IMG/VR virus record: IMGVR_UViG_3300027861_000012
Location: 96,380-160,379 of that record
Source: a virus
Lineage: Duplodnaviria > Heunggongvirae > Uroviricota > Caudoviricetes
Direction: 5' to 3' (one strand)
Length of the DNA: 64,000 nt
Of the stretch, positions 1 through 23,405 are shown in pieces. The position numbers were made by a program, and so were the translations under genes. The notes beneath the pieces were generated by a model. It was not told where the DNA came from, searched no databases, and saw only the letters and a list, made by a program, of their open reading frames with translations. The first letter of the stretch is position 1, and each line of letters starts with the position of its first letter.

Positions 1-3000
1 CCAACTCCAACCTCGTATGTCATACTAAGCGTGTTGGAAGCAGATCGGACCCAAATTCCAAGTTGGGCAGCGGTGTCTGAAACTGACAGGTTATGGGTCA
101 CTGCTTCAACATTGACCAACACACGACTTGCAGAATCGCTTGGTGCGAGTGTGTCTGTGATAGATTTGCCAAGCACCATACCAAGATCAAGATCGTCTCC
201 GATCACAATCGTAGAACTCAATGTGGCGGTAACAATTTTGCCGCCATCACTGATATCAGTGACGATCAAAGTGGATGTGCCGGAATGCTGCACGATAGCT
301 ACTCTGTCTATGGCGTCATCCAGATCGATGGAACTCAGCAGTGATTTACCAAGGGTTGCCACTCTGCCTAATGAATCCGACAAATCAATCGTGCTGCTAA
401 GAGCCCGATCCCAGACTACCAACACGGTATCAGAATGTGTCAGGGCAAGTGTGCTCGTACTGAACCGTAAGGCCACATGAACGCGACTGGCCACGTTACT
501 AAGCGACAGTGTATCGGTTACATCCTTCTGTAGGGTGAAGGCTAGAGCAGCCTGACTGACTGCATCGATGATACTGGAAGCTGTTCGTGGCCATACCGTG
601 TCCTGTGTAGCTGATACTGATGGGACCAGTACCGAGGTTGCAGACTTACTGGCGACAATGTTTCTGTCACCAATACTGGTTAGGTCCAGTGTATGGCTGC
701 TAGCCTTTTGTACGGTGGCGATTCTGTCTGGTGTACCAGTCAAGACCAGTGTGTTAGACAGGTCTTTGGTCAGAACAAAGCCTGCCGACATATCGTCACT
801 GAGTAAAAGAGCACCACTTGCACTACGAGGCCACACAGTATCTTGACCAGCGGTGTCAGAGAGAGCCAAAGTAGCACTGACATCCTTCTGGAGTGTGGCA
901 ATACGGCTCGCAGCATCAGAGATGCTCAGTGTATGTGTTATGGAGTATGTGAACTCGGTCTCTTCGTAACCCGTACTGGTGAGGGTTATCGTTGAGGTCA
1001 AGCTTAGATTCAAAACGATCAACCGATCTGGGTCATCGTCTAGTACCAGTGTGTCAGAAGCAGCCAGATTCAAAACACTCGTCTCGCTGGCTGTGCCGGT
1101 GAGGCTAATTGTCGAAGAGGCGGTGTGACTGACTGTGGCAATACGGTCTGCTGAGTCATCAAGACTCATTGTATCCGTTGCGGGTCGCAGGTATATTGGT
1201 GTCTGAGCCGCTGTGCTCGTGAGGTCGATATCATCAGCACTAGATAGTGACCAAATTACTGTGAGGACGCTCAAGTCTGATAGGTCGAGTGTTGAAGATG
1301 CTGACGGTGATACGAGAGCCGTTCGTGCCAGTGTGTCATCCAAGTCGAGTGTTGAACTGGCGTCGCGCGGCCAGACAGTATCTTGTGTAGCAGTTCCAGA
1401 GATGTCCAAGGTTGAGCTACTGGCTAGCGGCCATGCCCAATTCACTTCCAGCAGGTCGGATATACTGAGTGTACTTGTGATGCTTTTGCCCAAGACGGCA
1501 AGTCGGTCAGCTTCGCTGTCGAGTACCAGTGTGTCTTGAAGTGATTTATTGAGGACCCAACCAGCATCCAGTACATGGCTCAAGCTAAGTGCATTCACAG
1601 CACTACGTACCCAGGTGGTGTCAAAGATTGCAGCTTGTGTTAGTGTAATGGTGTCGCTGAGGTCATAGGTGACGATGATGTTTCGGTCACCCGTGCTTGT
1701 CAAATCAATCTCTGTGGTGACTGGCCGAGCAAAGACAGCCAACTGGCTGGCGGTACTTGTCAAAACAACCGTGTCGGAGGCAGTTCGTGCTACTGTCTGC
1801 ACGAAGGATGCAACATCGCTGGCGCTGATGGTATCAGAGGTTGTGCGATTGAATACACCAGCATACGCGGATACAGACACCCAATCAATTGTACTGCTGC
1901 TGGCTCGTTGCAGGCTGTAACCCACATTCAAGTCATCGTCTAACGGAATGGCATGTGTTGGTGTTCGCAACCAGATGGTGGTCTCAACACAATTATCGGA
2001 GATAACCAGTGTGCCAGAACTGTCTGCCGACACAGCTTTCAGCAGATCAAGAGTATCCGATATGTCAATGGTGTTGGTTGCAGTCCGGCTTCCGATTCTA
2101 ATACGGGTCGCAATGTCACTACATACAATGGTTGATGACCCACTTAACTGGAGAATCCAAGTTGGGTCCAAATCATGGCTCAGATCAAGACTGTCGGAAT
2201 CGGATGTGCTGCGTACATGAGTTGTATCCCCGACACTCACAAACGTGATGGTACTGGACGGCCCGAGCGTTAGTATCCAATTCAAACCAACCACGTCTGA
2301 GACTGTGATAGTAGATGTTAGTGTGCGGGGGAATATCCCGGTGTAGTCCAGTGTGTCACTGACTGATATACCAGATGGGGCATTCAGAGTAATGATAAAT
2401 CCTGCTTCAGCCGTTGAAGTCCAGTCCAAAGAGGACGTACCAATCCCCTGGATGTAGGTCTCACCGGTAGCAGCATGTCGGAGCCGTAACGGAGACTGCA
2501 TACCTCGTGGGATGAAGTTTCTGAATGGGAAATAATCGATACCATGATACTCTTTGCCAAAGACACCGTGATGAATGGTGGTAGTGATCCCTGTAGAAAC
2601 AACCGTCTTCTTTACGTCACGTCCCGAGGTCCAATACAACGTATCGTTGTCCTCGTTGTAACACAGGTCATCGGGCAAATTGGCATCGGTGAGCACTGTG
2701 TCTCCTGAGCCATCAATGTTGGCAACATAGATGTCCCCACCTGAGATACCACGCCCAAAGAAGATGCGCTCATTCTGGCGGTCAATGCAAATTGCTTGTG
2801 GTAGGTTCCAACCTGTAATGAGATCAGTAACGTTACTGCCGTCATAGTCACAACGCTTCACGATGTGGGCACTATAGTCACAGAAGTACAACTGATTGTT
2901 GTAGGCGGCCAAACCGTAGGGTCGCACCACGTCATCAACAGTGGCTTCCAGAATCAAAGTGATGTTGGACCCATCCAAGTCCATTCGGTAGACTTTGTTG

Positions 3001-4274
3001 TTAGTGTCCGATTCATCTACAAAGTAGATGTAGTTCTCGTATGAATCAACACACAAGCTCAACAGCGATGAGTAGGCAGGGTCATCAAGGATAACTGTTT
3101 CCCCGGTACCATCCAAATTCCCTCTATGGATGGTGTTGTCTGTGATATCGACCCAATAAATCTCATACCGATTAACATGGATGTCGGCATCGGTTGGCTT
3201 GTTACCCGTATCAAACATCGCACGTCGATTGTTTCCGTCAAAGTCCATCCTAATACATTCGTCTTCAGACCACTCCATGACAAACAACCGCTCAGAAGCA
3301 TGGGGGTCAATCCACACCGATGTATCCTGAGTGAAGTCCAGATCATCTGATGGGTGGCGTGTATACACATCGTATCCGCCAGAATTCGTATGCTCGAATG
3401 CAAGGGTGTCATCTACATCAATGGTGTGGACCACCGTGCGTTCCCAGGCACGTTGTAATAGTTGATCCATATCGAGTGTGGAGACCACCGTCTGTTGGTA
3501 CACCAGCGTAGAGGGTTTGTACAGAATGGCCTTCCAACTCTTAGCCAAGCTGTCCTGATCTGAGTCACGGAGTTTTTCGTATCCGGTGCCATAGATAGAG
3601 ACCCGGTAGATATCTCCGTCTGCCTGATCGTAAGTAAAGTACAGATAGTCATCACCAGGATCGTATTCGAGCCGAATGACATTGACACCCGTGGTATCAA
3701 TATCGTACACTAAGGCATTGTTGCCGCCGTCCATGTCACAGACACGAAGCTGGTCACCATTCGAGTAGTAGATTTTGTCATTATCAATATCCACTGAGAC
3801 CGATGGTCCGTCTGTGGTGCCCGTGATACCGGTGACGATATTCGCCAGGTTGGTACCATCCAGGTCACATGTCCGGATGCTATTATTAGTCGAATCGCAG
3901 AGCACCAATTTACCCAACGCTGGGTGGATGCCCATTTCACTGATCCAGGCCAATCCTGAAGTCAAGACATCAGTTGCACCGGTGCCATCTAAGGCAGCCT
4001 TGCGAATCTTAGCCGGACTGTATTCGTACCAATAGACTTCATCCGCACCAGGATTCACTGTGATACCAACAGGACCAGCCGTACTTGTATCCAACCAGAC
4101 TTCGCTGTTGCCACCATCAAGATCACATCGCTTGATCTCTTGATTGGCATAATGTGTCCAGTAAATCTTGTCATTGGTGAGGTCTATCGCGGCATCCTGG
4201 CAGCCGTCTACACCACTGCTGAGAATCACAGCAGCATAGGCACTATCAGGTTTGAGGCGTAGAATCTTACCCAT
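1..4274 (-). CDS. Second giant fibre-like protein, partial (>=1424 aa, open at window edge): two YWTD-like beta-propellers then 20-aa stalk repeats
   Basis: Not in ORF track because it has no stop in the window. Hand translation from ATG 4274 (SD AAGGA, 2 nt after the TAA of the 5090-aa gene) gives MGKILRLKPDS...IDLTNDKIYWTHYANQEIKRCDLDGGNSEV...EIYWVDITDNTIHRGNLDGTGE...QDTVWPRDASSTLDLDD... with no stop down to position 1. Confidence 0.9.
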   Translation of the reverse strand, partial: MGKILRLKPDSAYAAVILSSGVDGCQDAAIDLTNDKIYWTHYANQEIKRCDLDGGNSEVWLDTSTAGPVGITVNPGADEVYWYEYSPAKIRKAALDGTGATDVLTSGLAWISEMGIHPALGKLVLCDSTNNSIRTCDLDGTNLANIVTGITGTTDGPSVSVDIDNDKIYYSNGDQLRVCDMDGGNNALVYDIDTTGVNVIRLEYDPGDDYLYFTYDQADGDIYRVSIYGTGYEKLRDSDQDSLAKSWKAILYKPSTLVYQQTVVSTLDMDQLLQRAWERTVVHTIDVDDTLAFEHTNSGGYDVYTRHPSDDLDFTQDTSVWIDPHASERLFVMEWSEDECIRMDFDGNNRRAMFDTGNKPTDADIHVNRYEIYWVDITDNTIHRGNLDGTGETVILDDPAYSSLLSLCVDSYENYIYFVDESDTNNKVYRMDLDGSNITLILEATVDDVVRPYGLAAYNNQLYFCDYSAHIVKRCDYDGSNVTDLITGWNLPQAICIDRQNERIFFGRGISGGDIYVANIDGSGDTVLTDANLPDDLCYNEDNDTLYWTSGRDVKKTVVSTGITTTIHHGVFGKEYHGIDYFPFRNFIPRGMQSPLRLRHAATGETYIQGIGTSSLDWTSTAEAGFIITLNAPSGISVSDTLDYTGIFPRTLTSTITVSDVVGLNWILTLGPSSTITFVSVGDTTHVRSTSDSDSLDLSHDLDPTWILQLSGSSTIVCSDIATRIRIGSRTATNTIDISDTLDLLKAVSADSSGTLVISDNCVETTIWLRTPTHAIPLDDDLNVGYSLQRASSSTIDWVSVSAYAGVFNRTTSDTISASDVASFVQTVARTASDTVVLTSTASQLAVFARPVTTEIDLTSTGDRNIIVTYDLSDTITLTQAAIFDTTWVRSAVNALSLSHVLDAGWVLNKSLQDTLVLDSEADRLAVLGKSITSTLSISDLLEVNWAWPLASSSTLDISGTATQDTVWPRDASSTLDLDDTLARTALVSPSASSTLDLSDLSVLTVIWSLSSADDIDLTSTAAQTPIYLRPATDTMSLDDSADRIATVSHTASSTISLTGTASETSVLNLAASDTLVLDDDPDRLIVLNLSLTSTITLTSTGYEETEFTYSITHTLSISDAASRIATLQKDVSATLALSDTAGQDTVWPRSASGALLLSDDMSAGFVLTKDLSNTLVLTGTPDRIATVQKASSHTLDLTSIGDRNIVASKSATSVLVPSVSATQDTVWPRTASSIIDAVSQAALAFTLQKDVTDTLSLSNVASRVHVALRFSTSTLALTHSDTVLVVWDRALSSTIDLSDSLGRVATLGKSLLSSIDLDDAIDRVAIVQHSGTSTLIVTDISDGGKIVTATLSSTIVIGDDLDLGMVLGKSITDTLAPSDSASRVLVNVEAVTHNLSVSDTAAQLGIWVRSASNTLSMTYEVGV

Positions 4275-4276
4275 GA

Positions 4277-7200
4277 TTATTCCTTATCAATTACGTAGAG
4301 GCTACCGGACTCAGGCGGCTCAATGACAGCCGAGGCCGATGACGCTGGCACCAAAGTATCTTCTGCATCACCATCATATGTCCTTGGCCAGACACGGTGG
4401 GCCCAAGTCAGGTCATCCGAAGCTGACCGAGCAAAGGTCATTGAGCGGGTTGCAGTTTGTGTCAAGTCTCCGGTATTGTCTGCCGACTCGACTGAGGCCA
4501 GGTTGAATGTACTCTCCTGGGTTAGATCAACCACATTTTCGGTGACTCGTGGGTGTGTTGTGAAGTCGTCACCAGCATAAACGATACTGACGGCCATGTT
4601 GTCATCAAGCGTGAATGAAACCTCTGTGTCTTCAACGATAGAATCCCATGCACGACTCTGCCATGTGAGTGTATCATCAGAATCTCGGTTGTACACGCTA
4701 CTGGCCAGCGACAGGGCTTGACCAAGGGCGGCTGTCGATTCCAGGGCTTGAAGGGCCACAGTCGTTTCACCTGGGAGACTCGACAATGTGATGGTGTTGT
4801 CCCCAGTTCGATTCCTTGTGATGTTGAAGCTAGCCGCACTGGAGAGAGTCAGATCACTGGTACCACTGCGTTGGAGCGAATAACCAAGATTCAAATCGTC
4901 GGTCAATTCGATAGCGTTTGTCAGGTCACGAGCCCAAACAGTATCTTGTGTTGCCACATCGCTGGCAGCGATTTCGTGATCAACACTTCTTGGTGACACT
5001 ACGGCCTCGTTAGCACTGTCATCCATCACAAGGGTGTTCTCAGCATATCGGTCCCAAACTACATCGAAGACACTTGCATCTGACAGTATCAACGTGTTCG
5101 CAGCATTGCGGATAACTTCAACGACAATTATGTCGTCCAAATCAATGCTAGAACTTGACGCGGGACTGATGAAGTGTTCGTAGCTCAGCACTTCGTCTAG
5201 TGTCAACGTTGATTCGATAGACTTGTTAAGGATGCTGGTAAGATCAAGATCATCGTCTAGCGTCATGGTATGTGCAGCAAACCTACTGAAGATTGGCTGC
5301 TTGTCGCTAATACTGGTGAGCGTGAAAGTCGAAGACGCATCGCGGTCACGGAAAGTAATACTGGTAGCGACATCGCCAACAGTGAGATCAGTATCCAAAT
5401 CTCGCGTTAGTGTGTAACCAAGATTGAGTGCTTGGGCCAGATCAGTGGAATCCTCCCCGAATCTTGGTAACACTAACGTTTCACCACTGCTGTCGGATAG
5501 ATCCAGATCATCAGCAAGTGGTGGCCCCAGAACAAATAAGGTTGCCAACTCATCTGAAATTGTGGCAGCGTGTATGATTACTTCATTGAAATCAGTGGTC
5601 TCATAACCGATTGAATCCAGTTCAACTGTGGTGCTTCCGGCTTGCTGTGAAACGATATTTCGGTCTACAATAGAGACCAGTGTTAGGGTATTGTCGTGGG
5701 CCAAGGTTACAACAACGTTGCGGTCACCAATACTGGACAGATCAATTGCGTTACTGGCATACCGTAGATATACCATATCCGCGACGGCCAGACCAGACGC
5801 TGTCAGTGTATTGCTTAATGACTTACCAAGGGTTGCAATCCGTGTAGTGACATCACTTAGTGTAACAGCATTGGTAGCACTTCGGCCCAAGATGGAAGTT
5901 TCTGCACCTGTATCCGTGAGGTCAAGATCAGACTCACTCCATCGTTGCCTTACTGTAATGGCACCTACGGCTGTGTCCGCCAGGTCAATATCACTGGTAC
6001 TACCCTCAAGGGAGAGGAATGCCTCATCAACAACACTGGAGATGGTCAAGGTTGAAGTATCATCGGTTGTTCGGATTCGGTTTTGGGTGACGCTGTCGGA
6101 AAGATCAATGTTCGCGGTCACTTCTTTCAATGGTACAAAGACAACTGTGGATTCGTCACCCAGAGATAGCGAGACCGCAGTTGATCGTGGCCATACGGTG
6201 TCCTGCCCGGCAATGGCCGACAGGTCCAGAGTATCACTGCTGCTTCTGGGTGCCACATGTCCATAGACAAGTGAGTGTACGAAATCGAGATCACCTAGCA
6301 TCTGACGGGTTCTGGTGTAACCCGTGTATGGTGCAATGGCCAGACCCCATGGTCGTTGGTATTCGGTACCAGCCGACACTTGATTATGTGTATGAGGCGC
6401 AGTAATCTTGACACTGTGCAGCCCGATGTAGGTCCCGGCCGCAGCGTTGTCTTGGTAACAGACTGTATAGATCGAGTCGTTTACAGCGTTGAAGGCAATG
6501 TGCTCGAAGTGTCCGGACGGGATCGAAATCTCAGTAATCACCCATGCACTGGGCCCATCAACGTCGGCATAAAATGCCCGCGCGTAACCCGTGGAAAGTG
6601 ATTTGTACAACCAGAACAACCTACCATTGGTTTCGTCATAGTTCAGGTGAATCCAAGGTCTGGTCCCTGGGAAGTCGGTCAGATTACCAAGACGCACAAT
6701 TTCTGCGTTAGTATCCAAGTTCTTTTCAACGATGCGTCCGGTTGGGGATCTATCTGCGTACCACAATCTCCTGTTCGCACCATCACCTGCAAGATCGCTC
6801 GCATAGCCCGAGCCAAAATTCACGTCAGGATTCACGTTGTCCAAATCCCATATCGACCCATAACCGTTATTGAACAGAATAGCCGGAGCATGAATGGCAT
6901 ACATATTGTTGTTCTGTGAATCAACAAACGATCTACTGGCACGATAGACAGGCGGGTTGGGATACACGTAGAAGTTGGCACCGTTTAGATCGCATCCAAA
7001 CTCGTAGCCAAAGACATATGATCCGAAGTAAATACGATCATCAACAATGCCAAGATCCCAGGTATCGTTGGGATAGGCTTGTGACCCGGCTGGGTACGGA
7101 AGATCATTCAATTCAATTGCTGTTTCTTTACCGGTGAGGTCTGGCCTGAATTTCACAATTCGTGAGTGTAGCGAATCGCCTTCATAACCTTCACCTGTGT

Positions 7201-10200: not shown

Positions 10201-13200
10201 TCTTGAGATCATGCTCAACGATGAGAAGGTTCGAGAGGGCTCTAACATAGACTGTCTCGCGGTTCGCATAATAGCCCCACATGATTGTCGAGTCAACAAA
10301 TTCGAGCGACAAGAAGTCTTCATGAGCATCAGCACTGAGGGTCAGGTTGGAGATGGCATCATGAGAGACCAAGGCGATGCGGTTTACATCGTCACTCAGA
10401 GACAATGTCCCAGTACCCAGTCGGTAGCTGTCGGTTTCTTCAATCGCAGTGTGCGAGAGGTCCATATCGGAGGTTGCTGAGACTTCTGTGACCAAGTAGA
10501 CGATTTGATCCAGGAACGTGAGGTTGGCTTCGATGTCGGCGGTGACAACGAAGCTGTAATCTTCAAGACTCTCAAGGACCAGGGTTGAAGTTTCTGCCCG
10601 TTCAAGAATAGCAACACGGTCAGCAACCTGTGATAGGTTGAGGGTGTGTTCAACGTCTTCAAGGAATGTTGGAATCGGAGCTTCATCAATTGCAAAGCCG
10701 TAAACGGTAGTTCGGTTGGTCGGCCGTGTAGCGTCTGGCCAGGTATGGACCACAGTACGATTGTATCCGTTCCAGTCAATTTTTTCAACATACCGACTCG
10801 AAGTGTCGCTGGATATAGAGTAGATGCAGTCATCATTGGGGTTGTAGGCAAAGTCTTTGATTTGATGTGGGTTCGGGTAGACAACCTCGATCTTAGTTTC
10901 TTCGGTATCGTCCTTATGAGCCTGATAGAAGGTACTGACGCCAGCTTGGTTGACCCACAATAGGCTCTCATGTGCTGGAACAAACTCCATATAGTATGGG
11001 TCCCCAGGTATCTCCATCCATAACGTCAGCCCTGAACCGTCTGTATTCATGCGCCAGATTTCTCCAGGCACGCCAGGATTGACAAACGTCGTTGCCCCGA
11101 TATACAGTTGCTGGTCTGCCGGGTCAATGGCGATTGAGTGCAGATTGTATGTACCCAACCCACCTGTGGAGGCGATTAGTGATTCATCGGTACCATCAAG
11201 ATTATTTTGGTACACGGCACCGAAGCCACCATTCTGGTGTGTATAATAAATCTTGTTATTGGCAGGGTCAACAGTAACATCAAGTATACCGCCAGGCCAC
11301 CCAGGTTCCAAATATGGAATCCAGGAACGAATTTCTGTGACGTTGCTGCCATCAAGATCGGCCCGCATGATTTTGTTCCGCAGATTGTCGGTCCAATACA
11401 TCTTATGATTGATGCCATCAATCACCATGTGCCAGCCACCACCTGAATTAAGGTCTGGATAAGGCGCGCCAATTTGGGTTGTGGCTACCACATAAGGGTC
11501 GGTTCCGTCTGCCTTCATCGAGAGGATTTCGTCATACAATTGATCTATCATATAGAGGCGGCCGTTTGGATCAAGGATACGTGTGACCGCCGCTGCATCA
11601 GACAATGGGAGGTAGTCGATAGGTGATTCTATTGTGGACAGGAATGCATCATCGTCCCATGTAACGGTATGACTGAGGGTATGACCCAGAACGGCAGTAC
11701 GATCACCGGTATCCGATGGCGTCAAGTCCTGGGTAATGCTCCGCTCGATGATACGCAATCCGGTGGCAGCATCTGTGAGATCAATGTCATCGGTTCCATA
11801 GTGGAACTTGACAGTGTTGTCGGCTGTGGCTTCATGGTCCAAGTCGGTGAGTTCACTGGCTGTGGTACCACCGGTAATCGGTAGTGCTTCAGCAAGCTGA
11901 CCTGGGAAGAGGTAATTGATCGCATTGCCAAATCGAACGGGCAGAACGTCAGCAGCATGATCAAGATCGATGGTATGGCTGAGAGCCCGTAAGGCCCAGA
12001 ATGTATCTTGTGTAGCTGTGTCATCCAGATCCATGGAGTGCGACATGGTCTTGTAGACGATGATAGTACGATCAGGGGTGCTAATCAGATCAAGATCATC
12101 GGTACTAGCACGATTCAAAACGCTAACCTCTGTGACCTCGTCAGAGAGGGTCAGTGTGTCAGTTATGTCTTTACCGAGTAGGAAAATGGTTTCCAGGGTG
12201 GCATCAAGATCAAGCGAGTCAGTAGCGGCTCGCGGTCGGATCATATTACCCACGAATATCTGGCTTAAATCCAGACTATGCGGCATCTCACGATCCAAGA
12301 CGTAATTGACATCCAATTGATCGTCGATTGCAACCGAGTCTCCGGCAGACCGTGGGAATACAGAATCCTGCTCGGCTGTATCATCCACAGGGATGTCGTC
12401 GGTCAACAGTTTACCCAACGAGACAATTCTGGCTAAATGGTGCCAGGTATCGAGTGGTGATTCGAGGCTCCGGGGTCGAACAGCATTCTGGGAGGCGGTT
12501 TGGTTAGGTTCCCAGATGGTGGTAGCATATCGATCCCAGACGCCAAGGAAAGTAACTGCGCTAGTGAGGTCGGTGGTGTCAGTTGGGTCACGTTGGAAGA
12601 CCATTAGTTCTTCCGCTGTGTCGCTAATAGGCACCAATGAATCGGTCAGTGATTTACCAAGAATTGCAACCCGGTCCATGGAGTCGCTCAAATCCAAAGA
12701 GTGGACGAGATGACGCAGAGATTCGGTTTCTTCCAGTACAGTATGACTCAGGTTGATTGTTTGTGTGAAGGATTTACCAAGGGTAGCAACTCGGCTGGCT
12801 ACATCCGAGAGGGTTGCTGTATTATCCGCACTTCGTGGGCGAAGGAAATTGGTATCTACTGTGCCAGAAACATCCAGAGTGTTTCCAAGGCTGTGGTCAA
12901 AGATTGCCAAGTATGAGGCTGAAGAAGATGGGTCCAATGTACCAGTTGCTGATCGGCTAACAACAAATACACGGGTTGCCGTGTCGTCCAAGTCCATTGT
13001 ATTTGTGGCTGTTCGCAGGTAGGCCCAAATATCATCCAACACCTGACTGACTATCAAAACGCTAGTCAGGTCTTTGGTAACCACAATGATTCGACCTACA
13101 ACCTGTGACAAATCAGGGGTAGATGTTGCACTTCTGGGTCGCACCATTGGGTAGACCAAGGTATGATCCAAATCAAGAGTATCATCACTGCTACGCTGGA

Positions 13201-16200
13201 GGATATAGCCAACATCGATTGCGTGCTCAAGCCCAACGGTGTTTTCAGAATCACGCGGGCGAATCAACGGATTTTCAATGTCTTGCCCCGCCAACAATAC
13301 GGAAACCAAGGTCTTGCCCAGGATGGCGGTACGGTCACCAACATGGGTAAGATCAATGGAGGTGTCGGGACTACGTGGGAAGACGGCTGTGTATGCGAGA
13401 GTATCGTCCAACGACATTGTGGTGTCAATTGAGCGATCAAAGATGGCAAGATATAGGGCCGTATGATCTGGGTCGATAGCATTGCTGCTACTACGAGCCC
13501 AGACCATAAGACCGATGAACTCATCCGTGAGGTTGAAATCACTACTGAATGATCGCCCATAGACACCATTGAATGCCAGGATGCTATTTAGTCCAACAGT
13601 ATTCTCAGAATCACGCGGACGAACGGCATCATAGTCAATGACCCCGGTGGGCTCCAATGTGTTGGTCGATTCACGCTGCAAGCTGTAAATGACATCAAGA
13701 TCGTGGTCCAGTGATGTGGTGACGCTAGCATCCAACGGGCGAGTGATATTCTGTGTAGTGGCATCACTGGGGCTCAGTGTGGAAGTCCCGTCATGACTCA
13801 CGAGTGCGATTCTATCAACGGTGTCTGATACATCAATTGAGTTTGAGCCGCTACGGGGCCACACAGTATCTTGTTCTGCTGTTGCCGATACCGTCATGAT
13901 GTTGGACAAGAGACGATCAAAGACTGCCAGGTACAGGGCTTGATCAGTTGAAGTCAGCGTGTCGCTGGAATTTCTTGGCCAAATGGTATCTTGTTCGGCA
14001 GACTGTGAAAGTGTCCCTGTATTCTCGGCTTGGAGTTGTAGGATTCCACTTCTGCTGGCAGTATCATCGGGATCGAGTGTATTACTGGCATATCGATCAA
14101 AGACCATTTGGCGCTCGGCAGTATGATCGGGCGTCAGTGTATGAGACAGGTCTTTGCCGACCACAATCAGGCGTGTTAGAAGATGACTGATGGTAACCGT
14201 GTGTGATTCAGTCCGGTCATAGGTGGCTACACGCCCCGCCGAGTCAGTGGCATCAATGGTGTTTGAAAGTACCCGATCAAAAATAGCCAGATACAAACCG
14301 CTATCACTGATGTCTAGCGATACGTCTGCTGATCGCCCAAAGATTCCCGTATAGACAAAGTCCTGACTGAGTGTAATCGTGACGGAAGGTTGCTTCCCGA
14401 GGACGGCAGTTCGGTCGCCCACACTATCAAATGTCAGGAGCAGTTCGGCATCGCGCGGCCACACCATATCCTGATCAGGGGTTGTGTCAAAGATCAAACC
14501 GCTGGTTAGCGTCTTTCCAAGGGTCGTGGTGCGGTCATAGTCATGGCTCAACACGATGGTGGATGTGCTGTCTAACGGCCGAACTGTGTCCTGCACATTG
14601 GTATCCGAGATATCCAGAGTATGATTCAAGGATTTCCCGAGGGTTGCAATCCGGTCACCCGTACCACTGAGGTCGAGTGTATCAACTGAATTTCGTGGCC
14701 AGACTGTATCCTGTTCCCCGGCATCTGACAGCGGAATGATGTGAGATGGTTGTTTCTGAAGCGTAGCAGTTCTATCAACAACATAATCCAAATCAATGGT
14801 AGACGAACTGCTTCGTGGCCAGATTGTATCCTGTTCGTTGCTGTCAGAAAGATCAAGAGTATGGCTCAAGGATTTCCCGAGGGTAGCAATCCGATCTCCA
14901 GTATCACTTAACGTGATAGTGTTGGTTGAACTCCTTGGCCAGATCGTATCTTGTTCAACTGAATCAGACAGGGTAAGCGTGTGTGAAGGTTGCTTCTGAA
15001 GCGTTGCGATTCGATCAACAACATCAGATAGTTCGAGTTCATCCAGAACTACAAAAGCCTCAAACACAGTATCTTGGGTTGCTATTGAGTCTAGTTCAAG
15101 AACACTGGTTGCAGACCGATTCAGGATGCTGGTTTCAGTAGCGGTGCTGGTCAGACTCAAAGTATCGGTGCTGTACCGATCAAAGAGCATGACACGGGAT
15201 ACCGTATCAGATAGGCTGATTGTATCCAAAAAGGCTCGACCGAGAATGGCAACACGGTCGCCAACATGGGTGAGATCAATATCGTGTGTAATATGACGCA
15301 ACCAGTCAGTATCCATTATGGCGGTACTGGTCCATGTCAATGACTGCGAGAGACCTTTACCAAGGGTAGCTGTTCTGTCACCAATATCGGTGGCTGCGAG
15401 CGTGCTGGTAGCGGATCGTGGCCAGATGGTATCTTGCTCGGCACTGATAGACCATGCGAGACTGCTGGTAGCATAACGATCCCAAAGTATGACACGGATG
15501 ACACTGTCACTCAGTGTCAGATCGTCGGTTTGATTCTTAGTCACTTGGATGAGGACATCCGGAGTCTGAGCGATGAGCACCCCAGAAGATGCGCTGCGTG
15601 GCCAGATTGTATCCTGTTCAACATCGCTGTCGATGGTAAGGGTATCAGTGAGTTCTTTGCCAAGTGTGGCAATGCGATCCACAATACTCGTGAGGTCCAG
15701 TGTATTGGCAGTATTTCGTGGCCAGATCGTATCTTGTTCTGCATCACTGTCAATGGTGAGCGTATGGGATTGATCTTTCTGCAACTCAACGATATGCTCA
15801 AGTCCGTGCCCCACACCGATGGTATTGGTAGCTGATCGTGGCCATACGGTATCTTGCTCGGCACCACTATCGATTGCTACTGTGTGGGTTAGTTCTTTAC
15901 CCAGGGTTGCAATTCGGTCTACTGTGCCAGTGAGATCAAGAGTGCTGTCAGCGGTACGGGGCCATACTGTATCTTGTGTCACAATACTGCTTAGTGTAAG
16001 CGTATGGGACTCATCTTTCTGCACAGTGATGATTCGATCAAGTTCATGATCCAACCCCATGGTATCGGCTGATGATCGTGGCCAAATTGTATCTTGCTCG
16101 ACTGTGGAATCCCATGTGAGTGTATGGGTCGGAGCACGATTCAAAATAGCAACTCGGTCTCCAAGGCTAGTCAGATTAAGCGTGTTTTCAGCATATCTGT

Positions 16201-19200
16201 CCCAGACCGTCAACTGAGTGATCACCTCAGATAGTGTCAGAGTATTACTCAGAGACCTGACAAATATGGCCAGATACAAGGCTTCATCGGTTGCAGCCAA
16301 TGTGTTATCCGCCGACCGATTGAAATCCCCGGTGTATGTGAATTCTTGGGAGACAACCAGCGTGTGCGACAAGTCTTTCCCAAGGAACAGTGTTGCATGA
16401 TTGCTGTGATCTAGGTCTAGGGTATGGTCGAGTGACCGTGGGAATAGGGCCACGTATTCAACAAGGTGGTCCAGTTTGTTCCATGTAAGGTCATCGGAGT
16501 GGACCGCCAGGTTAAGGACGATATTGCGATGCAGAAGATGTTCCACGCCAATATCACCATCAGATTGACGAACGAAAACCAACTCCCGTTCTGCCAGATC
16601 ATCCAGTGTGGTCTCGGTGCTTATGGGACGTAGGAACAGAGCCACACGCTCAGTCTCATCACCAAGACTCAGTGTAACATCAGGCAGTCGAACAAACACA
16701 CTGTCTTGAACCACGAGGTGGTCCAAAATGATATTGTCAACGAAACCCCGTTCCAAGATGTAATTGGTATGCAACAGGTGCGAGAGATCGATTGTGCTGG
16801 AGGCATCTCTTGGCCGTACAGCATCATGATCTGGTGTGCTGATTAGCTCCAGAGTTTGTTCAATATCTTTCTGAAGAATGACATTGAGATCAAGAAGCTC
16901 GCTAAGTGTCAGGGTATGTTCGACGCTACGTGGCCGCACCATGTAACCGTCAGCCTGATGATCCAAATCTGGTTCTGAATCTGTGGGCCGCTGTGCATAA
17001 ACCAACACTTCCACGATGGCATTGGCAACAATTTCGCTGGCCGCCGAGCGTGGACGATCAGAGTCATGCATGACAGCATCTGTAATCGTGATACTGTGTG
17101 CAATTGATCGGTCACGAACCGCAAGGTATGTTGCCAGGTCATTGGTGTCAAGATCACTGACCAAGTATCGTGTTCGGTCAGTAAAGAATTCTGCCGCTTG
17201 TGTGACCGTAAACAGATTATTGGTTGCATACCTATCAAAGACAGCATCGAATGTGACGACATCGTACATGGTAGACAGCATGTTGTAGGCTGTCATTGAA
17301 TAGATGTCAGCAAGTTCGGCTTCGAGTTCAACACTGGCTGTCAAACCATTTCGATGATCCCGCACGATGGGGTCCTGTGGTGAGACAATGACACCGCGCC
17401 ACTCGCGGTTTTCCCAATCTAGTAATCCAACCTCTTTACCCAGGGTTTGACGACAGAAATCTAGGAAGTTCTGTGCCTCATCTTCTGCCAGTCCGTTGAA
17501 TTGGAACGTCAAATGCTGAATCTTGGGCCAAATCTGGTCGGCAAAAACAATCAGTGTCCCGCCACGGCTCTCTCGTTTGATGCGGTGGAACGCCAGGCTG
17601 TCCTTATTGTCAAACTCTGGCCCACGTAAATGAATTGATAGTGTGGGATCGACAGCAGGGTAGAAAAAGGTGACACCACTGGAATCACCAATCACCGGTT
17701 GGCCTGTTTTTGGTGGTGATGGGGCATCAGGGTCAGTTGTTGATCCAACAAACGGTGAGTAATTATGCAGTGTTGAATCTTGAAGATTGACAAACGCCAT
17801 CGTTTGAGTCAACAAAAGATTAGTCGTAACCTCAAACGGAGCCCGCAGAATAATTCGATCAACTTCATGTAAAAGACTCAGTGTGTCACTGGCTCGCTCT
17901 GTGGTGAGTCCTCTCGCCTCATGACTGAGAGTCAAATACGAGGTTGCCGATTCTGCAATGCTTAGCTGAGCGTAATCTCCAAGATCGATGGTATTGGTAG
18001 CCGAAGCTGACGTACCCGTAGACAATGCCAGGGCCGCAGAAGCCTCACTGGTGAACCAAATGTTTTGGGTACGAATTGGAAGTGTGCCCAAAGATATGGT
18101 GTATTCGGCCGCGTGAGTTAGCTCGTAAAGACGTTCCAGATTATACTGGGTGGTCAATGGGTCATAGACTTGTACCAGCGGCCCAAGAAACTCTGATTCA
18201 GCCGAGACATGACGTGGATATCGAACATCCTCGGCATGACTCAATGAGAGGATATTACTGGCAGACACTTGCCGGATACTGGGATCAACCTGTTCGCTAA
18301 ACGACAGTGTGGACTCACAGTTGCCAATAAACGGGCGACCAACATATGCAGTCTGAACCAGGGTCAGAAAACCGGTTTCGGTTCCTGGGTACTTCGGGTA
18401 GACCAGATAGACAATGTAGTCCCAGTTGTCCAACACCGATTCGGCGTACAAACTGATCCAGGATATTCGAGCCGTCTGGCTAAGATTAAGCGAGTCGCTG
18501 GCATCGCCATGCCATGGAACTGGCGTATAGGGACCATCGACAAATTGAATCTCACTCAAGGCGTCCACAACGTGCCAAGTATGTTTTGCACGCCCAACCA
18601 GATACATCAGGTCATGAGTCATGCTCTCATTGAACGGCTGGGTGACATCATGGTCATGACTAAGATTCAATTGGCTGATGACTGGCGCAATATACCAGTC
18701 TCCCACAGCGTCGGTATTCAGAACTATATCATCCTGTGCCGAGAGACTCCAGGGTCTGACAACACTGACCACATCATTAAGGGTCAGGGTGTCCGCCACT
18801 GGAAGCACATCAGTCGCTAGGATTGAGGAAAAGGTGATGGTGTGTTCTTCAGAACGGTACCAAGGTCGAATGACATTGAGATCATCATTGAGATCAAGAT
18901 CATCTGATGCGTCACCGAAACGCAAGTGATGCCTGGAGGCGTCCGTCATGGACGAGAGATCATCGGTAGCATTGATATACCACGGCCGAGTAGTAGTGGC
19001 TACTGATGTGAGGTCCAGGTTGTTGATAGCATACTCAAAGAGCCAGTTATGTTCCGGCAAGCTGCCAAGAACAAGACTGTTACTGGCCGAGAGTTGGAAG
19101 ATAGTCTGACGCGATGCATCATTCAGAATCAGTTCGTTGGAAGCATCGCGTGTGATGCGACCAAAGGCCACATTTATGTCTTGAGTGAGCGTTTCAGACA

Positions 19201-19549
19201 GGTGGGAATGTGGAACCGTATTGAGAAGATCCCAAGAAGCATGGAGCACTTCCATGCTCAAACCTGTCATGCGGATGCGACCGCTACCGGGTTTACCTAA
19301 AACCTCGATACGCTGCTGGGACAGCCTAAGATACCCTGGATCGGGTAGGCCAAGAACATCCAGATGTTGTGTGGGTACAATCAAATCACCAGGATCGGAT
19401 TGGCCCAGTACCTCGATGTGTTGCTGCGCAGTACGAATATCACCTGGGTCTGATTGACCCATGGCAAGAATCGACTGCATAGTGACTTGTAACTCGGATG
19501 GTATTTCAGCAAATACCAAGACCGATTGTTTCGTTACACGAATCGACAT
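4277..19549 (-). CDS. Giant (5090 aa) tail-associated fibre/adhesin: N-terminal 18-aa repeats, putative distal-tail-like domain, long 20-aa repeat stalk, four YWTD-like beta-propellers
   Basis: Uninterrupted ORF, TAATG-coupled to the upstream gene, downstream of tape measure. Repeats QDTIWPRSxxxTLDLSxxxD/RIATLGKxLSHTLTLSDxxE; propeller blades such as IDGINHKMYWTDNLRNKIMRADLDGSN and IDPVNEKMFWSDMMHQDIKSADLDGSN. Confidence 0.85.
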   Translation of the reverse strand: MSIRVTKQSVLVFAEIPSELQVTMQSILAMGQSDPGDIRTAQQHIEVLGQSDPGDLIVPTQHLDVLGLPDPGYLRLSQQRIEVLGKPGSGRIRMTGLSMEVLHASWDLLNTVPHSHLSETLTQDINVAFGRITRDASNELILNDASRQTIFQLSASNSLVLGSLPEHNWLFEYAINNLDLTSVATTTRPWYINATDDLSSMTDASRHHLRFGDASDDLDLNDDLNVIRPWYRSEEHTITFSSILATDVLPVADTLTLNDVVSVVRPWSLSAQDDIVLNTDAVGDWYIAPVISQLNLSHDHDVTQPFNESMTHDLMYLVGRAKHTWHVVDALSEIQFVDGPYTPVPWHGDASDSLNLSQTARISWISLYAESVLDNWDYIVYLVYPKYPGTETGFLTLVQTAYVGRPFIGNCESTLSFSEQVDPSIRQVSASNILSLSHAEDVRYPRHVSAESEFLGPLVQVYDPLTTQYNLERLYELTHAAEYTISLGTLPIRTQNIWFTSEASAALALSTGTSASATNTIDLGDYAQLSIAESATSYLTLSHEARGLTTERASDTLSLLHEVDRIILRAPFEVTTNLLLTQTMAFVNLQDSTLHNYSPFVGSTTDPDAPSPPKTGQPVIGDSSGVTFFYPAVDPTLSIHLRGPEFDNKDSLAFHRIKRESRGGTLIVFADQIWPKIQHLTFQFNGLAEDEAQNFLDFCRQTLGKEVGLLDWENREWRGVIVSPQDPIVRDHRNGLTASVELEAELADIYSMTAYNMLSTMYDVVTFDAVFDRYATNNLFTVTQAAEFFTDRTRYLVSDLDTNDLATYLAVRDRSIAHSITITDAVMHDSDRPRSAASEIVANAIVEVLVYAQRPTDSEPDLDHQADGYMVRPRSVEHTLTLSELLDLNVILQKDIEQTLELISTPDHDAVRPRDASSTIDLSHLLHTNYILERGFVDNIILDHLVVQDSVFVRLPDVTLSLGDETERVALFLRPISTETTLDDLAERELVFVRQSDGDIGVEHLLHRNIVLNLAVHSDDLTWNKLDHLVEYVALFPRSLDHTLDLDHSNHATLFLGKDLSHTLVVSQEFTYTGDFNRSADNTLAATDEALYLAIFVRSLSNTLTLSEVITQLTVWDRYAENTLNLTSLGDRVAILNRAPTHTLTWDSTVEQDTIWPRSSADTMGLDHELDRIITVQKDESHTLTLSSIVTQDTVWPRTADSTLDLTGTVDRIATLGKELTHTVAIDSGAEQDTVWPRSATNTIGVGHGLEHIVELQKDQSHTLTIDSDAEQDTIWPRNTANTLDLTSIVDRIATLGKELTDTLTIDSDVEQDTIWPRSASSGVLIAQTPDVLIQVTKNQTDDLTLSDSVIRVILWDRYATSSLAWSISAEQDTIWPRSATSTLAATDIGDRTATLGKGLSQSLTWTSTAIMDTDWLRHITHDIDLTHVGDRVAILGRAFLDTISLSDTVSRVMLFDRYSTDTLSLTSTATETSILNRSATSVLELDSIATQDTVFEAFVVLDELELSDVVDRIATLQKQPSHTLTLSDSVEQDTIWPRSSTNTITLSDTGDRIATLGKSLSHTLDLSDSNEQDTIWPRSSSSTIDLDYVVDRTATLQKQPSHIIPLSDAGEQDTVWPRNSVDTLDLSGTGDRIATLGKSLNHTLDISDTNVQDTVRPLDSTSTIVLSHDYDRTTTLGKTLTSGLIFDTTPDQDMVWPRDAELLLTFDSVGDRTAVLGKQPSVTITLSQDFVYTGIFGRSADVSLDISDSGLYLAIFDRVLSNTIDATDSAGRVATYDRTESHTVTISHLLTRLIVVGKDLSHTLTPDHTAERQMVFDRYASNTLDPDDTASRSGILQLQAENTGTLSQSAEQDTIWPRNSSDTLTSTDQALYLAVFDRLLSNIMTVSATAEQDTVWPRSGSNSIDVSDTVDRIALVSHDGTSTLSPSDATTQNITRPLDASVTTSLDHDLDVIYSLQRESTNTLEPTGVIDYDAVRPRDSENTVGLNSILAFNGVYGRSFSSDFNLTDEFIGLMVWARSSSNAIDPDHTALYLAIFDRSIDTTMSLDDTLAYTAVFPRSPDTSIDLTHVGDRTAILGKTLVSVLLAGQDIENPLIRPRDSENTVGLEHAIDVGYILQRSSDDTLDLDHTLVYPMVRPRSATSTPDLSQVVGRIIVVTKDLTSVLIVSQVLDDIWAYLRTATNTMDLDDTATRVFVVSRSATGTLDPSSSASYLAIFDHSLGNTLDVSGTVDTNFLRPRSADNTATLSDVASRVATLGKSFTQTINLSHTVLEETESLRHLVHSLDLSDSMDRVAILGKSLTDSLVPISDTAEELMVFQRDPTDTTDLTSAVTFLGVWDRYATTIWEPNQTASQNAVRPRSLESPLDTWHHLARIVSLGKLLTDDIPVDDTAEQDSVFPRSAGDSVAIDDQLDVNYVLDREMPHSLDLSQIFVGNMIRPRAATDSLDLDATLETIFLLGKDITDTLTLSDEVTEVSVLNRASTDDLDLISTPDRTIIVYKTMSHSMDLDDTATQDTFWALRALSHTIDLDHAADVLPVRFGNAINYLFPGQLAEALPITGGTTASELTDLDHEATADNTVKFHYGTDDIDLTDAATGLRIIERSITQDLTPSDTGDRTAVLGHTLSHTVTWDDDAFLSTIESPIDYLPLSDAAAVTRILDPNGRLYMIDQLYDEILSMKADGTDPYVVATTQIGAPYPDLNSGGGWHMVIDGINHKMYWTDNLRNKIMRADLDGSNVTEIRSWIPYLEPGWPGGILDVTVDPANNKIYYTHQNGGFGAVYQNNLDGTDESLIASTGGLGTYNLHSIAIDPADQQLYIGATTFVNPGVPGEIWRMNTDGSGLTLWMEIPGDPYYMEFVPAHESLLWVNQAGVSTFYQAHKDDTEETKIEVVYPNPHQIKDFAYNPNDDCIYSISSDTSSRYVEKIDWNGYNRTVVHTWPDATRPTNRTTVYGFAIDEAPIPTFLEDVEHTLNLSQVADRVAILERAETSTLVLESLEDYSFVVTADIEANLTFLDQIVYLVTEVSATSDMDLSHTAIEETDSYRLGTGTLSLSDDVNRIALVSHDAISNLTLSADAHEDFLSLEFVDSTIMWGYYANRETVYVRALSNLLIVEHDLKKVHIESAEDNLNLTQNINLGYLLTTPASSTINLSSDAVFDINRVLFATSDIGFTEDASRAGSTYTYDATDTLELDAPVYFPVDLAASNTLHLSGYSYYDIQVTIGPLWLGVSSGANGILGMNEYGQTKHIFGTSKHSDLRIDTVGNRVYGYGASDGPKVINSWDMDGNDPVGIVDLNDGTWSEWWAYHAGGYSTFDIIPSLGRLVFTVDGGHCPEGGCSAMYTVRMSDGGDHIQMLGAGGVFMYGSCLRRDPNTGLFWTFGSDTGSHTFHNLLVGNGYTNWSHVVAMPINKTYDAIAFDHNNDYVYFGASQDARIWRVNKTAPYNLQLVGTMTGQGGYEGVEKMVYDHESDILYLASKYAVYALDTNTMSLSTMRNTSAYDEGTYIYFDSVDLNDTTSFYHVRPRAAWNNMALDHSLSAVYSYHAPTPLTLSDELDLEQILNKDLDDTLVLEATAAQDTFWAIRTTADSIDLDHAASTIHVALRAAEDTLTLSYRTSRTFEVEHGDTLVLVQDLDRTAITNQSITDSITSTQSAVRYVVWPRSAISTLDLDHEAQETTIFSRSETDTLVALSDFAQKTFTPEATSTLVLDHTLVHGHANANTFALHLMDNQDNRCRVITLDGSHLKDLFESGVPFTPGDAVISLDDERIFWAETYSGAGALKSANLDGTDVEMLASGYANVMNVAVNDATDHVFAYVHSTNSTIRAIWRMNYDGSNPQKIVPGTSLTRVRGLEVSNGYLYIVDNGAGYIKRCELTGSNLTNLVQTNTDPTGPTAITIDPVNEKMFWSDMMHQDIKSADLDGSNVAQVAFIATYAVDMVYNFEDEYIYYTHQGDSHQVRRIKAYASFPTQEIIRIDNDASYTGIALGPQDWIIHLSAADSFTPEHSASVDVVWARTVEHTIPVTDEMDRIAILGRTLASGLDIDDTILGYLGSYEPVEQAIPLDDQLDLVAIPLRLGENDLDLDSDANTLWSAGRTVTQGLTLSDVVLYDLDEHVEGDGRVYTGEGYEGDSLHSRIVKFRPDLTGKETAIELNDLPYPAGSQAYPNDTWDLGIVDDRIYFGSYVFGYEFGCDLNGANFYVYPNPPVYRASRSFVDSQNNNMYAIHAPAILFNNGYGSIWDLDNVNPDVNFGSGYASDLAGDGANRRLWYADRSPTGRIVEKNLDTNAEIVRLGNLTDFPGTRPWIHLNYDETNGRLFWLYKSLSTGYARAFYADVDGPSAWVITEISIPSGHFEHIAFNAVNDSIYTVCYQDNAAAGTYIGLHSVKITAPHTHNQVSAGTEYQRPWGLAIAPYTGYTRTRQMLGDLDFVHSLVYGHVAPRSSSDTLDLSAIAGQDTVWPRSTAVSLSLGDESTVVFVPLKEVTANIDLSDSVTQNRIRTTDDTSTLTISSVVDEAFLSLEGSTSDIDLADTAVGAITVRQRWSESDLDLTDTGAETSILGRSATNAVTLSDVTTRIATLGKSLSNTLTASGLAVADMVYLRYASNAIDLSSIGDRNVVVTLAHDNTLTLVSIVDRNIVSQQAGSTTVELDSIGYETTDFNEVIIHAATISDELATLFVLGPPLADDLDLSDSSGETLVLPRFGEDSTDLAQALNLGYTLTRDLDTDLTVGDVATSITFRDRDASSTFTLTSISDKQPIFSRFAAHTMTLDDDLDLTSILNKSIESTLTLDEVLSYEHFISPASSSSIDLDDIIVVEVIRNAANTLILSDASVFDVVWDRYAENTLVMDDSANEAVVSPRSVDHEIAASDVATQDTVWARDLTNAIELTDDLNLGYSLQRSGTSDLTLSSAASFNITRNRTGDNTITLSSLPGETTVALQALESTAALGQALSLASSVYNRDSDDTLTWQSRAWDSIVEDTEVSFTLDDNMAVSIVYAGDDFTTHPRVTENVVDLTQESTFNLASVESADNTGDLTQTATRSMTFARSASDDLTWAHRVWPRTYDGDAEDTLVPASSASAVIEPPESGSLYVIDKE

Positions 19550-21632: not shown

Positions 21633-21642
21633 GGTGTGCTCC

Positions 21643-22719: not shown

Positions 22720-22730
22720 AGTCTACCTTG

Positions 22731-22774
22731 AAAGAAAAAGAACCGAATGGCAGCATCATGCTGCCATTCGGGTT
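22731..22774 (-). terminator. Intrinsic terminator
   Basis: Perfect 14-bp inverted repeat CCGAATGGCAGCAT/ATGCTGCCATTCGG (22743-22771) followed on the minus strand by TTCTTTTTCTTT. Confidence 0.8.
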
Positions 22775-22784
22775 GGCGAGGAAA

Positions 22785-23405
22785 TCACGCAGAGACAGTG
22801 TACGTGACCTTCAGTTGGTCACCACTTTGCACTGCAACGTCACCGCTACCAAAGTTGGCAGTGGCCCAAAGAATACCATCGGCCCCGTGGTCGTCCTTCG
22901 TCATGGCAGCCGCACCGAGGCCAACCACGAAGATACCCTTGACAGTACCTGAGCCGGTGATGTTGAAGATGGCAACTGACGAGTTCGTAATCGAAGCCGC
23001 TGAAGCTGCATCTTCCGGCCATTCCGGTCGAGTCGTGGTATTGTCAGAATTGTTACCGTCCGTGTAGGAAGTGAACTCCATCCAGTTGTTTGGATTGTCG
23101 ATCGTGGTGTACTGACCGATCCAATCATACTCGTCCACAGTCGTAACGTAAGCACCGAAGCTCGCGTTATCGACCAAGCCGATGTACCAAGTACTCGCAG
23201 CCGATGTACCATGGAACATCACGTCCAGCAAGAAGGTCTTACCTTCTGTGACAATGTCATTGGGGAAATCGTATTCGCCAATGACCTGGCCGTCACGCAG
23301 ATGCTCGACTACCAAACGCCCACCAAGAGGCAACTGTGCCTTCGGATGTTGGGGGGCCTTGTCGAGTGTCAAAGCGGCAGCCTGGTTCAGTTTCATCGTG
23401 TTCAT
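22785..23405 (-). CDS. Minor tail / tail-tip-associated structural protein (206 aa)
   Basis: SD TAAGGAG before ATG 23405; directly after tape measure; WYIGLVD, RPEW..AASAASITNSS..FNITGSGTVKGIF, GILWATANF pattern typical of phage tail-tip proteins. Confidence 0.55.
   Translation of the reverse strand: MNTMKLNQAAALTLDKAPQHPKAQLPLGGRLVVEHLRDGQVIGEYDFPNDIVTEGKTFLLDVMFHGTSAASTWYIGLVDNASFGAYVTTVDEYDWIGQYTTIDNPNNWMEFTSYTDGNNSDNTTTRPEWPEDAASAASITNSSVAIFNITGSGTVKGIFVVGLGAAAMTKDDHGADGILWATANFGSGDVAVQSGDQLKVTYTVSA

Follow-up and report, generated by a model that had tools for sequence, protein, structure and literature searches.

A stretch of 64,000 nt (the window; bases 96380-160379 of the 177,656-bp IMG/VR virus genome IMGVR_UViG_3300027861_000012, CheckV completeness 100%) was found to contain two adjacent giant genes, P0001 and P0003, whose products combine predicted beta-propellers of the YWTD type with a long stalk built from a repeat of 20 amino acids (aa). 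The best explanation, to which we assign a probability of roughly 0.6, is that these proteins serve as tail-tip fibres in a marine siphovirus-like phage and represent extreme growth in a variable receptor-binding slot. The source of this phage, which is uncultured, is seawater metagenomes. From position and architecture, we infer that the two giants belong to the virion as appendages that adhere or bind receptors. The array is an extreme form of the modular phage tail fibre, with a domain and a repeat that have not previously been described in phages.

The giant genes and the variable slot of the tail module

P0001 (window 4277..19549, minus strand) was shown to be an intact open reading frame (ORF) of 5090 aa with an ATG start and no internal stops, encoding a protein of 560 kDa with a pI of 4.4. 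P0003 lies on the same strand (window 1..4274, open frame 3-4274) and is open to the window edge. Its first 1424 aa are contained in the window, and in the complete record, where 6541 nt run past the window start, it has a full length of 3604 aa (384 kDa). The stop codon of the upstream gene and the start codon of P0001 overlap as TAATG, and the stop of P0001 is separated from the start of P0003 by a 2-nt gap, with an AAGGAA motif ahead of the P0003 start. Both ORFs are intact and translationally coupled. An earlier interpretation made from the letters of the window (the sequence-only reading) had described an ORF of 5090 aa and a coupled ORF of at least 1424 aa, both at the tail-tip end of the late operon. 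Both frames were indeed open and their junction tight, the second ORF really being 3604 aa, and the gene order based on PHROG matches agrees with the proposed location.

The 19.6-kb stretch was covered at ≥99% identity and with 0 indels by Logan contigs of four seawater runs, two of which were not flagged as a possible source of this DNA, so that the giant frame cannot be ascribed to an error of assembly. Besides, no tandem repeats were detected in the stalk DNA (Tandem Repeats Finder), which indicates that the repeats are old and likewise no product of misassembly. The guanine-cytosine content was level over the region (0.48-0.50).

Within the late operon, the giants are preceded by the portal, the major head protein and the tape measure protein (TMP). 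PHROG matches showed a siphovirus-like late operon in the order TMP, a 216-aa gene, three phrog_2448 paralogues and then the giant genes. These upstream tail genes (phrog_2448 paralogues of 365, 421 and 358 aa, the 216-aa gene and a TMP of 1438 aa) are located at window 19549..27751 on the minus strand, and their assignment was based on PHROG matches and on synteny that is retained in ~60 related viral contigs.

The N-terminal part of P0001 (aa 1-760; window 17270..19549, minus strand) consists of short N-terminal repeats, a variable middle and a conserved terminal domain, and is referred to here as the tail-tip anchor. A search of IMG/VR with P0001 aa 1-780, aligned to its one close homologue, yielded 72 loci. 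In ~70 of the 72 loci the anchor homologue was 370-1025 aa long and ended a few residues past the equivalent of P0001 aa 750. Judged by this homology, the first 750 aa of P0001 are a conserved tail-tip adaptor that is a standalone protein in the relatives. P0001 thus joins an adaptor of the tail tip to 4340 aa of cargo located in a hypervariable slot. Within the anchor, conservation is highest in a domain at aa 595-750 (window 17300..17767, minus strand), which showed 68% identity to P0008, the counterpart of P0001 in a second phage described below, vs 34% for the N-terminal 590 aa. This domain, which is probably the tail-attachment domain, had no sequence match in Pfam, PHROG or PDB, and feature searches in the ESM Atlas gave DUF6711 and Phage_min_tail as leads only. 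The sole PHROG or Pfam match for the anchor and its relatives was phrog_13560 (function unknown), on the N-terminal motif of the type R-x-T-x-Q-x-[IV]-E-V-L-G.

Comparison of the window tail genes with the 72 loci (tblastn) revealed a conserved module composed of gp245, gp176, gp167, the TMP, gp216, one to three phrog_2448 paralogues, the anchor, the slot and a homologue of P0006, a 955-aa conserved tail protein that closes the variable slot. In the relatives the slot was either empty or occupied by one to three genes of 300-2250 aa, and no YWTD blades were found in these slot genes. In the present phage it contains the 4340-aa extension of P0001 together with P0003, P0004 and P0005, corresponding to ~11,100 aa (the four proteins combined, including the anchor, amount to ~11,900 aa). 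A hypervariable slot is the usual position of receptor-binding genes, and the giants were found where a fibre gene is to be expected: in the tail module, downstream of the TMP and within the variable slot.

No PHROG or Pfam fibre family was found for the anchor, the stalk, the C-terminal modules or P0006, and a PDB sequence search with the anchor and the C-terminal modules of P0003 gave nothing meaningful. The sequence-only reading had not recognized the architecture as a standard one, in agreement with the absence of tblastn matches to the anchor, P0006, the stalk and the propellers in 50,697 GenBank phage records. Likewise, the structural region had no megablast match among GenBank phages, and queries with single proteins and with the propeller alignment detected no related loci among viral or genome contigs.

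Some further observations were made on this region. The 72 loci belong to a large clade of uncultured phages with contigs of up to 175 kb, in which the anchor and P0006 families flank the hypervariable slot. The phrog_2448 paralogues (function unknown) and the 216-aa gene fill the interval between the TMP and P0001 (window 19549-23435, minus strand), and zero to three paralogue copies were present in related viral contigs. At the N-terminus of P0001 (aa 1-110; window 19220-19549) and at that of the anchor homologues, a motif of ~18-20 aa of the R-V-T-R-Q-x-V-E-V-L-G type is present in four to six copies. Contigs from other seawater runs showed a short cluster of linked single-base variants at window 15032-15100, in a stalk unit at aa 1483-1506, and a second linked cluster at window 19375-19418, in the N-terminal motif repeats at aa 44-58; outside these two clusters, the 19.6 kb were nearly invariant across the seawater-run contigs.

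YWTD propellers and a relative with the same layout

Ten propellers were found at the locus, four in P0001, three in P0003 and three in P0005. Six are located in the window, all on the minus strand, and all six in-window blocks are of the YWTD type, as far as the fold can be judged from homology. In P0001, propeller 1 (aa 2655-2955; window 10685..11587) contains an Ldl_recept_b match and six YWTD-type blades, five of which were detected by a blade hidden Markov model (HMM) that found six in the orthologue. Propeller 2 (aa 3225-3550; window 8900..9877) is the most divergent block, and propeller 4 (aa 4110-4430; window 6260..7222) is divergent too. Propeller 3 (aa 3725-4000; window 7550..8377) is a canonical YWTD propeller with six blades, the best PDB matches and the DUF5050 match. 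In P0003, propeller 1 (aa 1-262; window 3489..4274) was matched by LRP2 (8jut) jointly with propeller 2, and propeller 2 (aa 315-600; window 2475..3332) was recognized by Pfam, PDB and blade HMM searches; they showed 68 and 73% identity, respectively, to the relative described below. The third P0003 propeller (aa 1767-2025) lies outside the window.

Pfam searches of the C-terminal half of P0001 gave scores above the cut-offs for PF00058 (Ldl_recept_b; 40.0 bits, cut-off 21) and PF16472 (DUF5050; 45.7 bits, cut-off 27). For P0003 the PF16472 score was 84.2 bits, and PF00058 scored 19.1 bits, just under the cut-off of 21. In phmmer searches against PDB, the propeller region of P0001 matched LRP4 (8s9p; whole-query E 4.9e-29), LRP2 and LRP6, most strongly over block 3, and P0003 blocks 1-2 matched LRP2 (8jut; E 3.3e-57) as well as LRP4, LRP6, LDLR and nidogen. 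The blade HMM detected five to six blades in all three P0003 blocks as well as in blocks 1 and 3 of P0001, and one to three blades in P0001 blocks 2 and 4 (five in the block-4 orthologue), while six blade-like motifs were visible by eye in each block. P0001 blocks 2 and 4, each aligned with its orthologue, were compared by hhalign with a YWTD profile of ten blocks, and both matched it (block 2: probability 96%, E 2.6e-9, 210 columns; block 4: probability 98%, E 5e-13). The sequence-only reading had placed YWTD propeller blocks here and had proposed that at least six divergent propellers are spaced along the stalk. Pfam, phmmer against PDB and hhalign agree with it to within ~120 nt of its coordinates, the Pfam check that it had suggested yielded DUF5050 and Ldl_recept_b above threshold, and the number of propellers was borne out by the six in the window and the ten at the locus.

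No EGF-like (epidermal growth factor-like) module was found after the propellers, as Pfam contained no match to an EGF family and cysteine made up 0.2% of P0001. The EGF module marks the metazoan receptor context and not the propeller domain itself. The nearest non-phage relatives of the propellers were large multidomain bacterial proteins (30% identity, E 4e-100), which points to an origin in a bacterial adhesin rather than a metazoan one, as far as sequence relationships can indicate. A eukaryotic partner, one of the options raised by the sequence-only reading, received neither support nor refutation, and the nearest non-phage relatives of the propellers were bacterial surface proteins. Reports of YWTD or DUF5050 domains in phage fibres were not found in the literature.

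One further phage was found to have the full layout, with P0008 (4885 aa) and a 3617-aa neighbour that are ~45% identical to P0001 and P0003. It occurs on a Logan contig (L005) and in IMGVR_UViG_3300007764_000001 (L008); tblastn results did not differ between the two, which seem to represent a single phage. A homologue of P0005 is also present. Global alignment showed P0001 and P0003 to be collinear with the relative. In the P0003 stalk 1159 of 1160 residues could be aligned, so the number of stalk units is equal in the relative. The three P0001 linkers were of the same length in both phages, and stalk 1 alone differed, by about eight units. Identity to the relative was 31-47% for the stalk segments and 49-73% for the propellers, except for P0001 propeller 1 (33%); the divergent propeller 2 of P0001 showed 52%. 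Since repeat numbers and spacing are nearly fixed at ~45% identity, fibre length and bead spacing look selected and not the outcome of repeat drift.

The 20-aa stalk repeat and its predicted fold

BLOSUM autocorrelation of the stalk showed peaks only at lags that are multiples of 20 (followed up to 300), and a unit HMM, iterated from 19 seed units and converging on a 14-residue core, detected 131 units in P0001 and 64 in P0003, mostly with a spacing of exactly 20. In the longest run (aa 1035-2537), 64 of 70 spacings were 20. By span, the stalk corresponds to ~152 units in P0001 and ~69 in P0003. Autocorrelation and HMM thus confirmed the period of the acidic Ser/Thr/Asp-rich 20-aa repeat that had been noted in both ORFs. 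The units showed merely ~22% identity to each other. Pairing into 40-aa units, which the sequence-only reading had proposed as well, held for P0001, where lag 40 exceeded lag 20 and units were 29% identical to the next-but-one vs 21% to the next unit, but was not seen in P0003.

In P0001 the stalk is divided into five segments, all on the minus strand. Stalk 1 (aa 770-2640, ~93 units; window 11630..17242) was delimited by autocorrelation and the HMM run and lies before the first propeller. The propellers are separated by linker 1 (aa 2961-3216, ~13 units; window 9902..10669), for which 255 of 256 residues were aligned to the relative, linker 2 (aa 3556-3713, ~8 units; window 8411..8884) and linker 3 (aa 4007-4106, 5 units; window 7232..7531), all of them defined by HMM and by alignment to the relative. 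The C-terminal stalk (aa 4432-5090, ~33 units; window 4280..6256), detected by HMM, aligned to the relative over 659 of 659 residues. In P0003 the stalk comprises aa 607-1766 (58 units by autocorrelation and HMM), of which aa 607-1424 are in the window (3..2456, minus strand), and a second segment (aa 2026-2245, ~11 units) lies outside it.

The unit profile has hydrophobic residues at positions 3-5, 9, 13, 15 and 19, Arg/Lys at 7 and frequently at 1, Asp/Asn at 11 and 17, and Ser/Thr at 8, 10, 12, 14 and 16, the latter alternating with hydrophobic residues from position 8 to 20. Gly/Pro was found at position 6 in 34% of the units. In overall composition the stalk is high in Thr, Ser, Val and Ile and low in Glu, Lys and Ala. 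N-glycosylation sequons (N-x-S/T) were not enriched (P0001, 37 observed vs 41 expected; P0003, 29 vs 38), and the 107 sequons of the fibres were at or below the composition-based expectation.

No Pfam or PHROG family corresponds to the 20-aa unit with its R7/D11/D17 pattern. A HMMER search of 1.84 billion cluster representatives identified 201 proteins of the repeat family at E<=1e-3 and 34 at E<=1e-10, and those looked up were all unnamed or annotated as hypothetical protein. Most of the matches examined had a period of 20 residues, the family consensus was R-x2-[ST]-[DE]-[ST]-L-x-L-[ST]-D-x3-R-x5, and the sampled contexts look phage-like. Among the 150 best matches, repeat and YWTD blades occurred together only in the present phage and its relative. 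In another phage (contig ENA ERZ25039541), a 1082-aa protein (P0015) with the same repeat is encoded next to the major capsid gene, with a ClpP-type protease on its other side, and the repeat may also be used in head-associated fibres. A 3254-aa protein with the 20-aa repeat was also seen among small viral-looking genes on GCA_046760665.1, a 19-kb contig binned as Bathyarchaeia, and might stem from an archaeal virus or from faulty binning.

The fold of the stalk was approached by structure prediction. With an alignment of 51 rows, AlphaFold2 (AF2) modelled each unit as two short strands, with a predicted local distance difference test score (pLDDT) of 59. This model superposed on ESM Atlas models of viral hypothetical proteins with template modelling scores (TM) of 0.87 and 0.85 and a root-mean-square deviation (rmsd) of 2.1-2.3 A, and on solved single-chain beta-helices over 170-180 residues (Z 12-15, rmsd 2.4-3.0 A); a Foldseek search of PDB gave weak beta-helix rows only (E >0.5). 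From a single sequence of 16 units, AF2 produced an antiparallel meander of long strands (pLDDT 64; one of five models above pLDDT 50), for which neither Foldseek against PDB (best TM 0.1-0.2) nor an Atlas shape search returned a match. The long-strand meander was set aside. Covariation by mutual information over 365 three-unit windows was as strong at i+20 as at i+40, with no anti-diagonal signal, a result confounded by the similarity between repeats. The hydrophobicity spectrum, a mixture of 72, 108 and 180 degrees, was not decisive. When three copies of a 180-aa stalk piece were submitted to complex prediction with the 51-row alignment, the score was 0.00 in both runs, which is evidence neither way. 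Our best guess from these models is a single-chain beta-solenoid with one coil per repeat. The unit profile fits a flattened solenoid in which positions 3, 5, 13 and 15 would form the core and 9 and 19 the arcs, with Arg/Asp at the edges and Ser/Thr facing outward.

The rest of the array (the remainder of P0003, P0004, P0005 and P0006) is found in the record at 74001-96379, immediately ahead of the window. About four copies of a module of ~290 aa make up the last 1350 aa of P0003. The same module is present in P0004 (781 aa), together with a Laminin_G_3 domain, and is repeated in P0005 (2408 aa), which also has a LamG domain and its three YWTD propellers. It had no match in Pfam, PHROG or PDB, and the Atlas gave weak leads to beta-helical adhesin passengers and otherwise to unnamed viral clusters. 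P0004 and P0005 are part of the same fibre array as the giants.

Proposed function, alternatives and known systems

In the tail-tip fibre explanation, the 20-aa repeat would fold as a single-chain beta-solenoid, one coil per unit, with a Ser/Thr-rich outer face, and at 0.48 nm per coil the stalk would measure ~73 nm in P0001 and ~33 nm in P0003. The ring of solved YWTD propellers is closed by the joining of the first strand to the last. Since the two ends of such a propeller are side by side, each one would be expected to hang from the stalk as a lateral bead. The propellers and the downstream LamG domains would serve as non-catalytic binding modules, and by many weak contacts the virion could be captured from a wider radius and retained on a host envelope or matrix before irreversible adsorption.

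Several points weigh against this explanation, and alternatives have to be considered. The presence of the giants in the virion is deduced from gene position alone, both stalk models are of low confidence (pLDDT 59 and 64) and conflict in topology, and for most propellers conservation exceeds that of the stalk, whereas receptor-binding tips usually evolve fast. The propellers could be enzymes of the lactonase, lyase or esterase type, acting as depolymerases on a host surface polymer and spaced along the fibre. Depolymerases are common among phage tail appendages, the Pfam scores for two families of enzymatic six-bladed propellers were close to threshold (Vgb_lyase, 47 bits, cut-off 50; SGL, 25.5 bits, cut-off 26.3), and a bacterial relative (P0156) bears Arylesterase, SGL and Vgb_lyase annotations. 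However, the best matches by far were non-catalytic YWTD propellers of LRP2, LRP4 and LRP6 (E to 3e-57), with DUF5050 and Ldl_recept_b above threshold, and overlapping matches to enzyme families are expected from related families of one propeller clan, so that an enzymatic role appears improbable. It is more improbable still that the giants are non-virion proteins, made late and released as adhesins or decoys or modifying the surface of the infected cell. At 384-560 kDa, such proteins would burden virion assembly heavily, but P0001 continues in frame from a conserved tail-tip protein, conserved tail genes flank the array on both sides at the very place where relatives hold variable fibre-sized genes, and none of the four N-termini, as read, has a hydrophobic leader.

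For the stalk, a homotrimeric intertwined fibre has to be weighed, which would be several times longer per residue and would present three propellers per node. Almost all characterized phage tail fibres and spikes are trimeric, the T4 gp5 C-terminal triple beta-helix family was among the Atlas shape matches (TM 0.63), and AF2 confidence for the monomeric solenoid was low. We nevertheless regard a trimer as unlikely, as each 20 aa contains two strand-like segments with hydrophobic positions able to fill a core alone, and single-chain beta-helices match the monomer model along its entire length. An alpha-solenoid in which each unit is one capped helix, as in designed helical repeat proteins, was suggested by matches of the stalk profile to DHR14 (5h7c; whole-sequence E 8e-11) and 5cwh (6e-5), by i,i+4 covariation at positions 1-5 and 2-6 and by the 108-degree component of the hydrophobicity spectrum of the family. 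Yet the per-domain E for DHR14, an idealized repeat with an equal period of 20 residues, was only 3e-4, and the match most likely reflects shared period and composition. Both AF2 runs were all-beta, and neither the richness in Thr, Ser, Val and Ile, with little Glu, Lys and Ala, nor the frequent Gly/Pro at position 6 (34% of units) suits a helix, leaving this fold scarcely credible.

An extension of the tail-tip fibre explanation, which we offer as a rather doubtful one, is that the four proteins form a branched net of more than 100 nm per tail tip, with ten different YWTD propellers and two LamG domains per chain set. Such a net might park the phage on non-host surfaces (marine particles, algal or animal mucus, or a sheath or stalk of the host) to await hosts, and its solenoid might be glycosylated by HMW1C-like glycosyltransferases of the phage. 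Known HMW1C enzymes modify a beta-helical adhesin. If true, the net would be a virus-encoded, glycosylated, LDL-receptor-like adhesion organelle.

As tail-tip fibres, the giants would bring the YWTD propeller, best known from animal lipoprotein receptors and Wnt co-receptors, into the phage receptor-binding toolkit. They also introduce two undescribed families, the 20-residue stalk repeat (~200 cluster representatives) and the tail-tip anchor (72 uncultured viral contigs), and indicate an evolutionary route to a giant virion protein by fusion of adaptor and cargo in a hypervariable slot. The near-fixed repeat number and propeller spacing suggest that selection acts on the length of the fibre and the spacing of its beads. 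To our knowledge, P0001 (560 kDa) and P0003 (384 kDa) are among the larger phage structural proteins, and they provide natural material for the study of very long beta-solenoids.

Compared to known systems, the phage propellers are similar to those of LRP2, LRP4, LRP6, LDLR and nidogen (8jut, 8s9p, 3s94, 1ijq, 1npe; PF00058) and of bacterial DUF5050 proteins (PF16472) in having six blades of ~42-50 aa with [YF]W[TS]D and LDG[ST]N motifs. They differ from the LRP, LDLR and nidogen propellers in that no EGF modules follow, in that they are embedded in a repeat stalk, and in that P0001 blocks 2 and 4 are recognizable by profile comparison only. Propellers and LamG are combined, as in the phage array, in the bacterial protein P0156 (1885 aa), which contains PKD, Ldl_recept_b and Laminin_G_3 domains and a sorting tail of the type IX secretion system (T9SS), and a second bacterial protein, P0157, contains dockerin, cohesin, leucine-rich repeat (LRR) and Ldl_recept_b domains. 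Unlike the phage proteins, both are cellular secreted proteins with no tail-tip anchor, and no member of the 20-aa stalk family was listed for them.

The low-confidence stalk model superposes on single-chain beta-helices, including putative adhesins (3lyc, 3jx8, 3ljy), SufD (1vh4), an antifreeze beta-helix (3p4g), TPS domains (1rwr, 2odl), the phage 7-7-1 tail fibre (9rkv) and tailspikes, although these solved beta-helices show only 4-11% sequence identity to the stalk. A run of ~93 unbroken coils would far exceed any solved beta-solenoid known to us. In general terms, the array resembles the T4 long tail fibres (gp34-gp37), where several co-transcribed fibre proteins are arranged in series, and giant bacterial repeat adhesins, where a long spacer carries ligand-binding modules. 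No sequence relationship to either was found, and the binding domains here are spread along the stalk instead of being confined to the tip.

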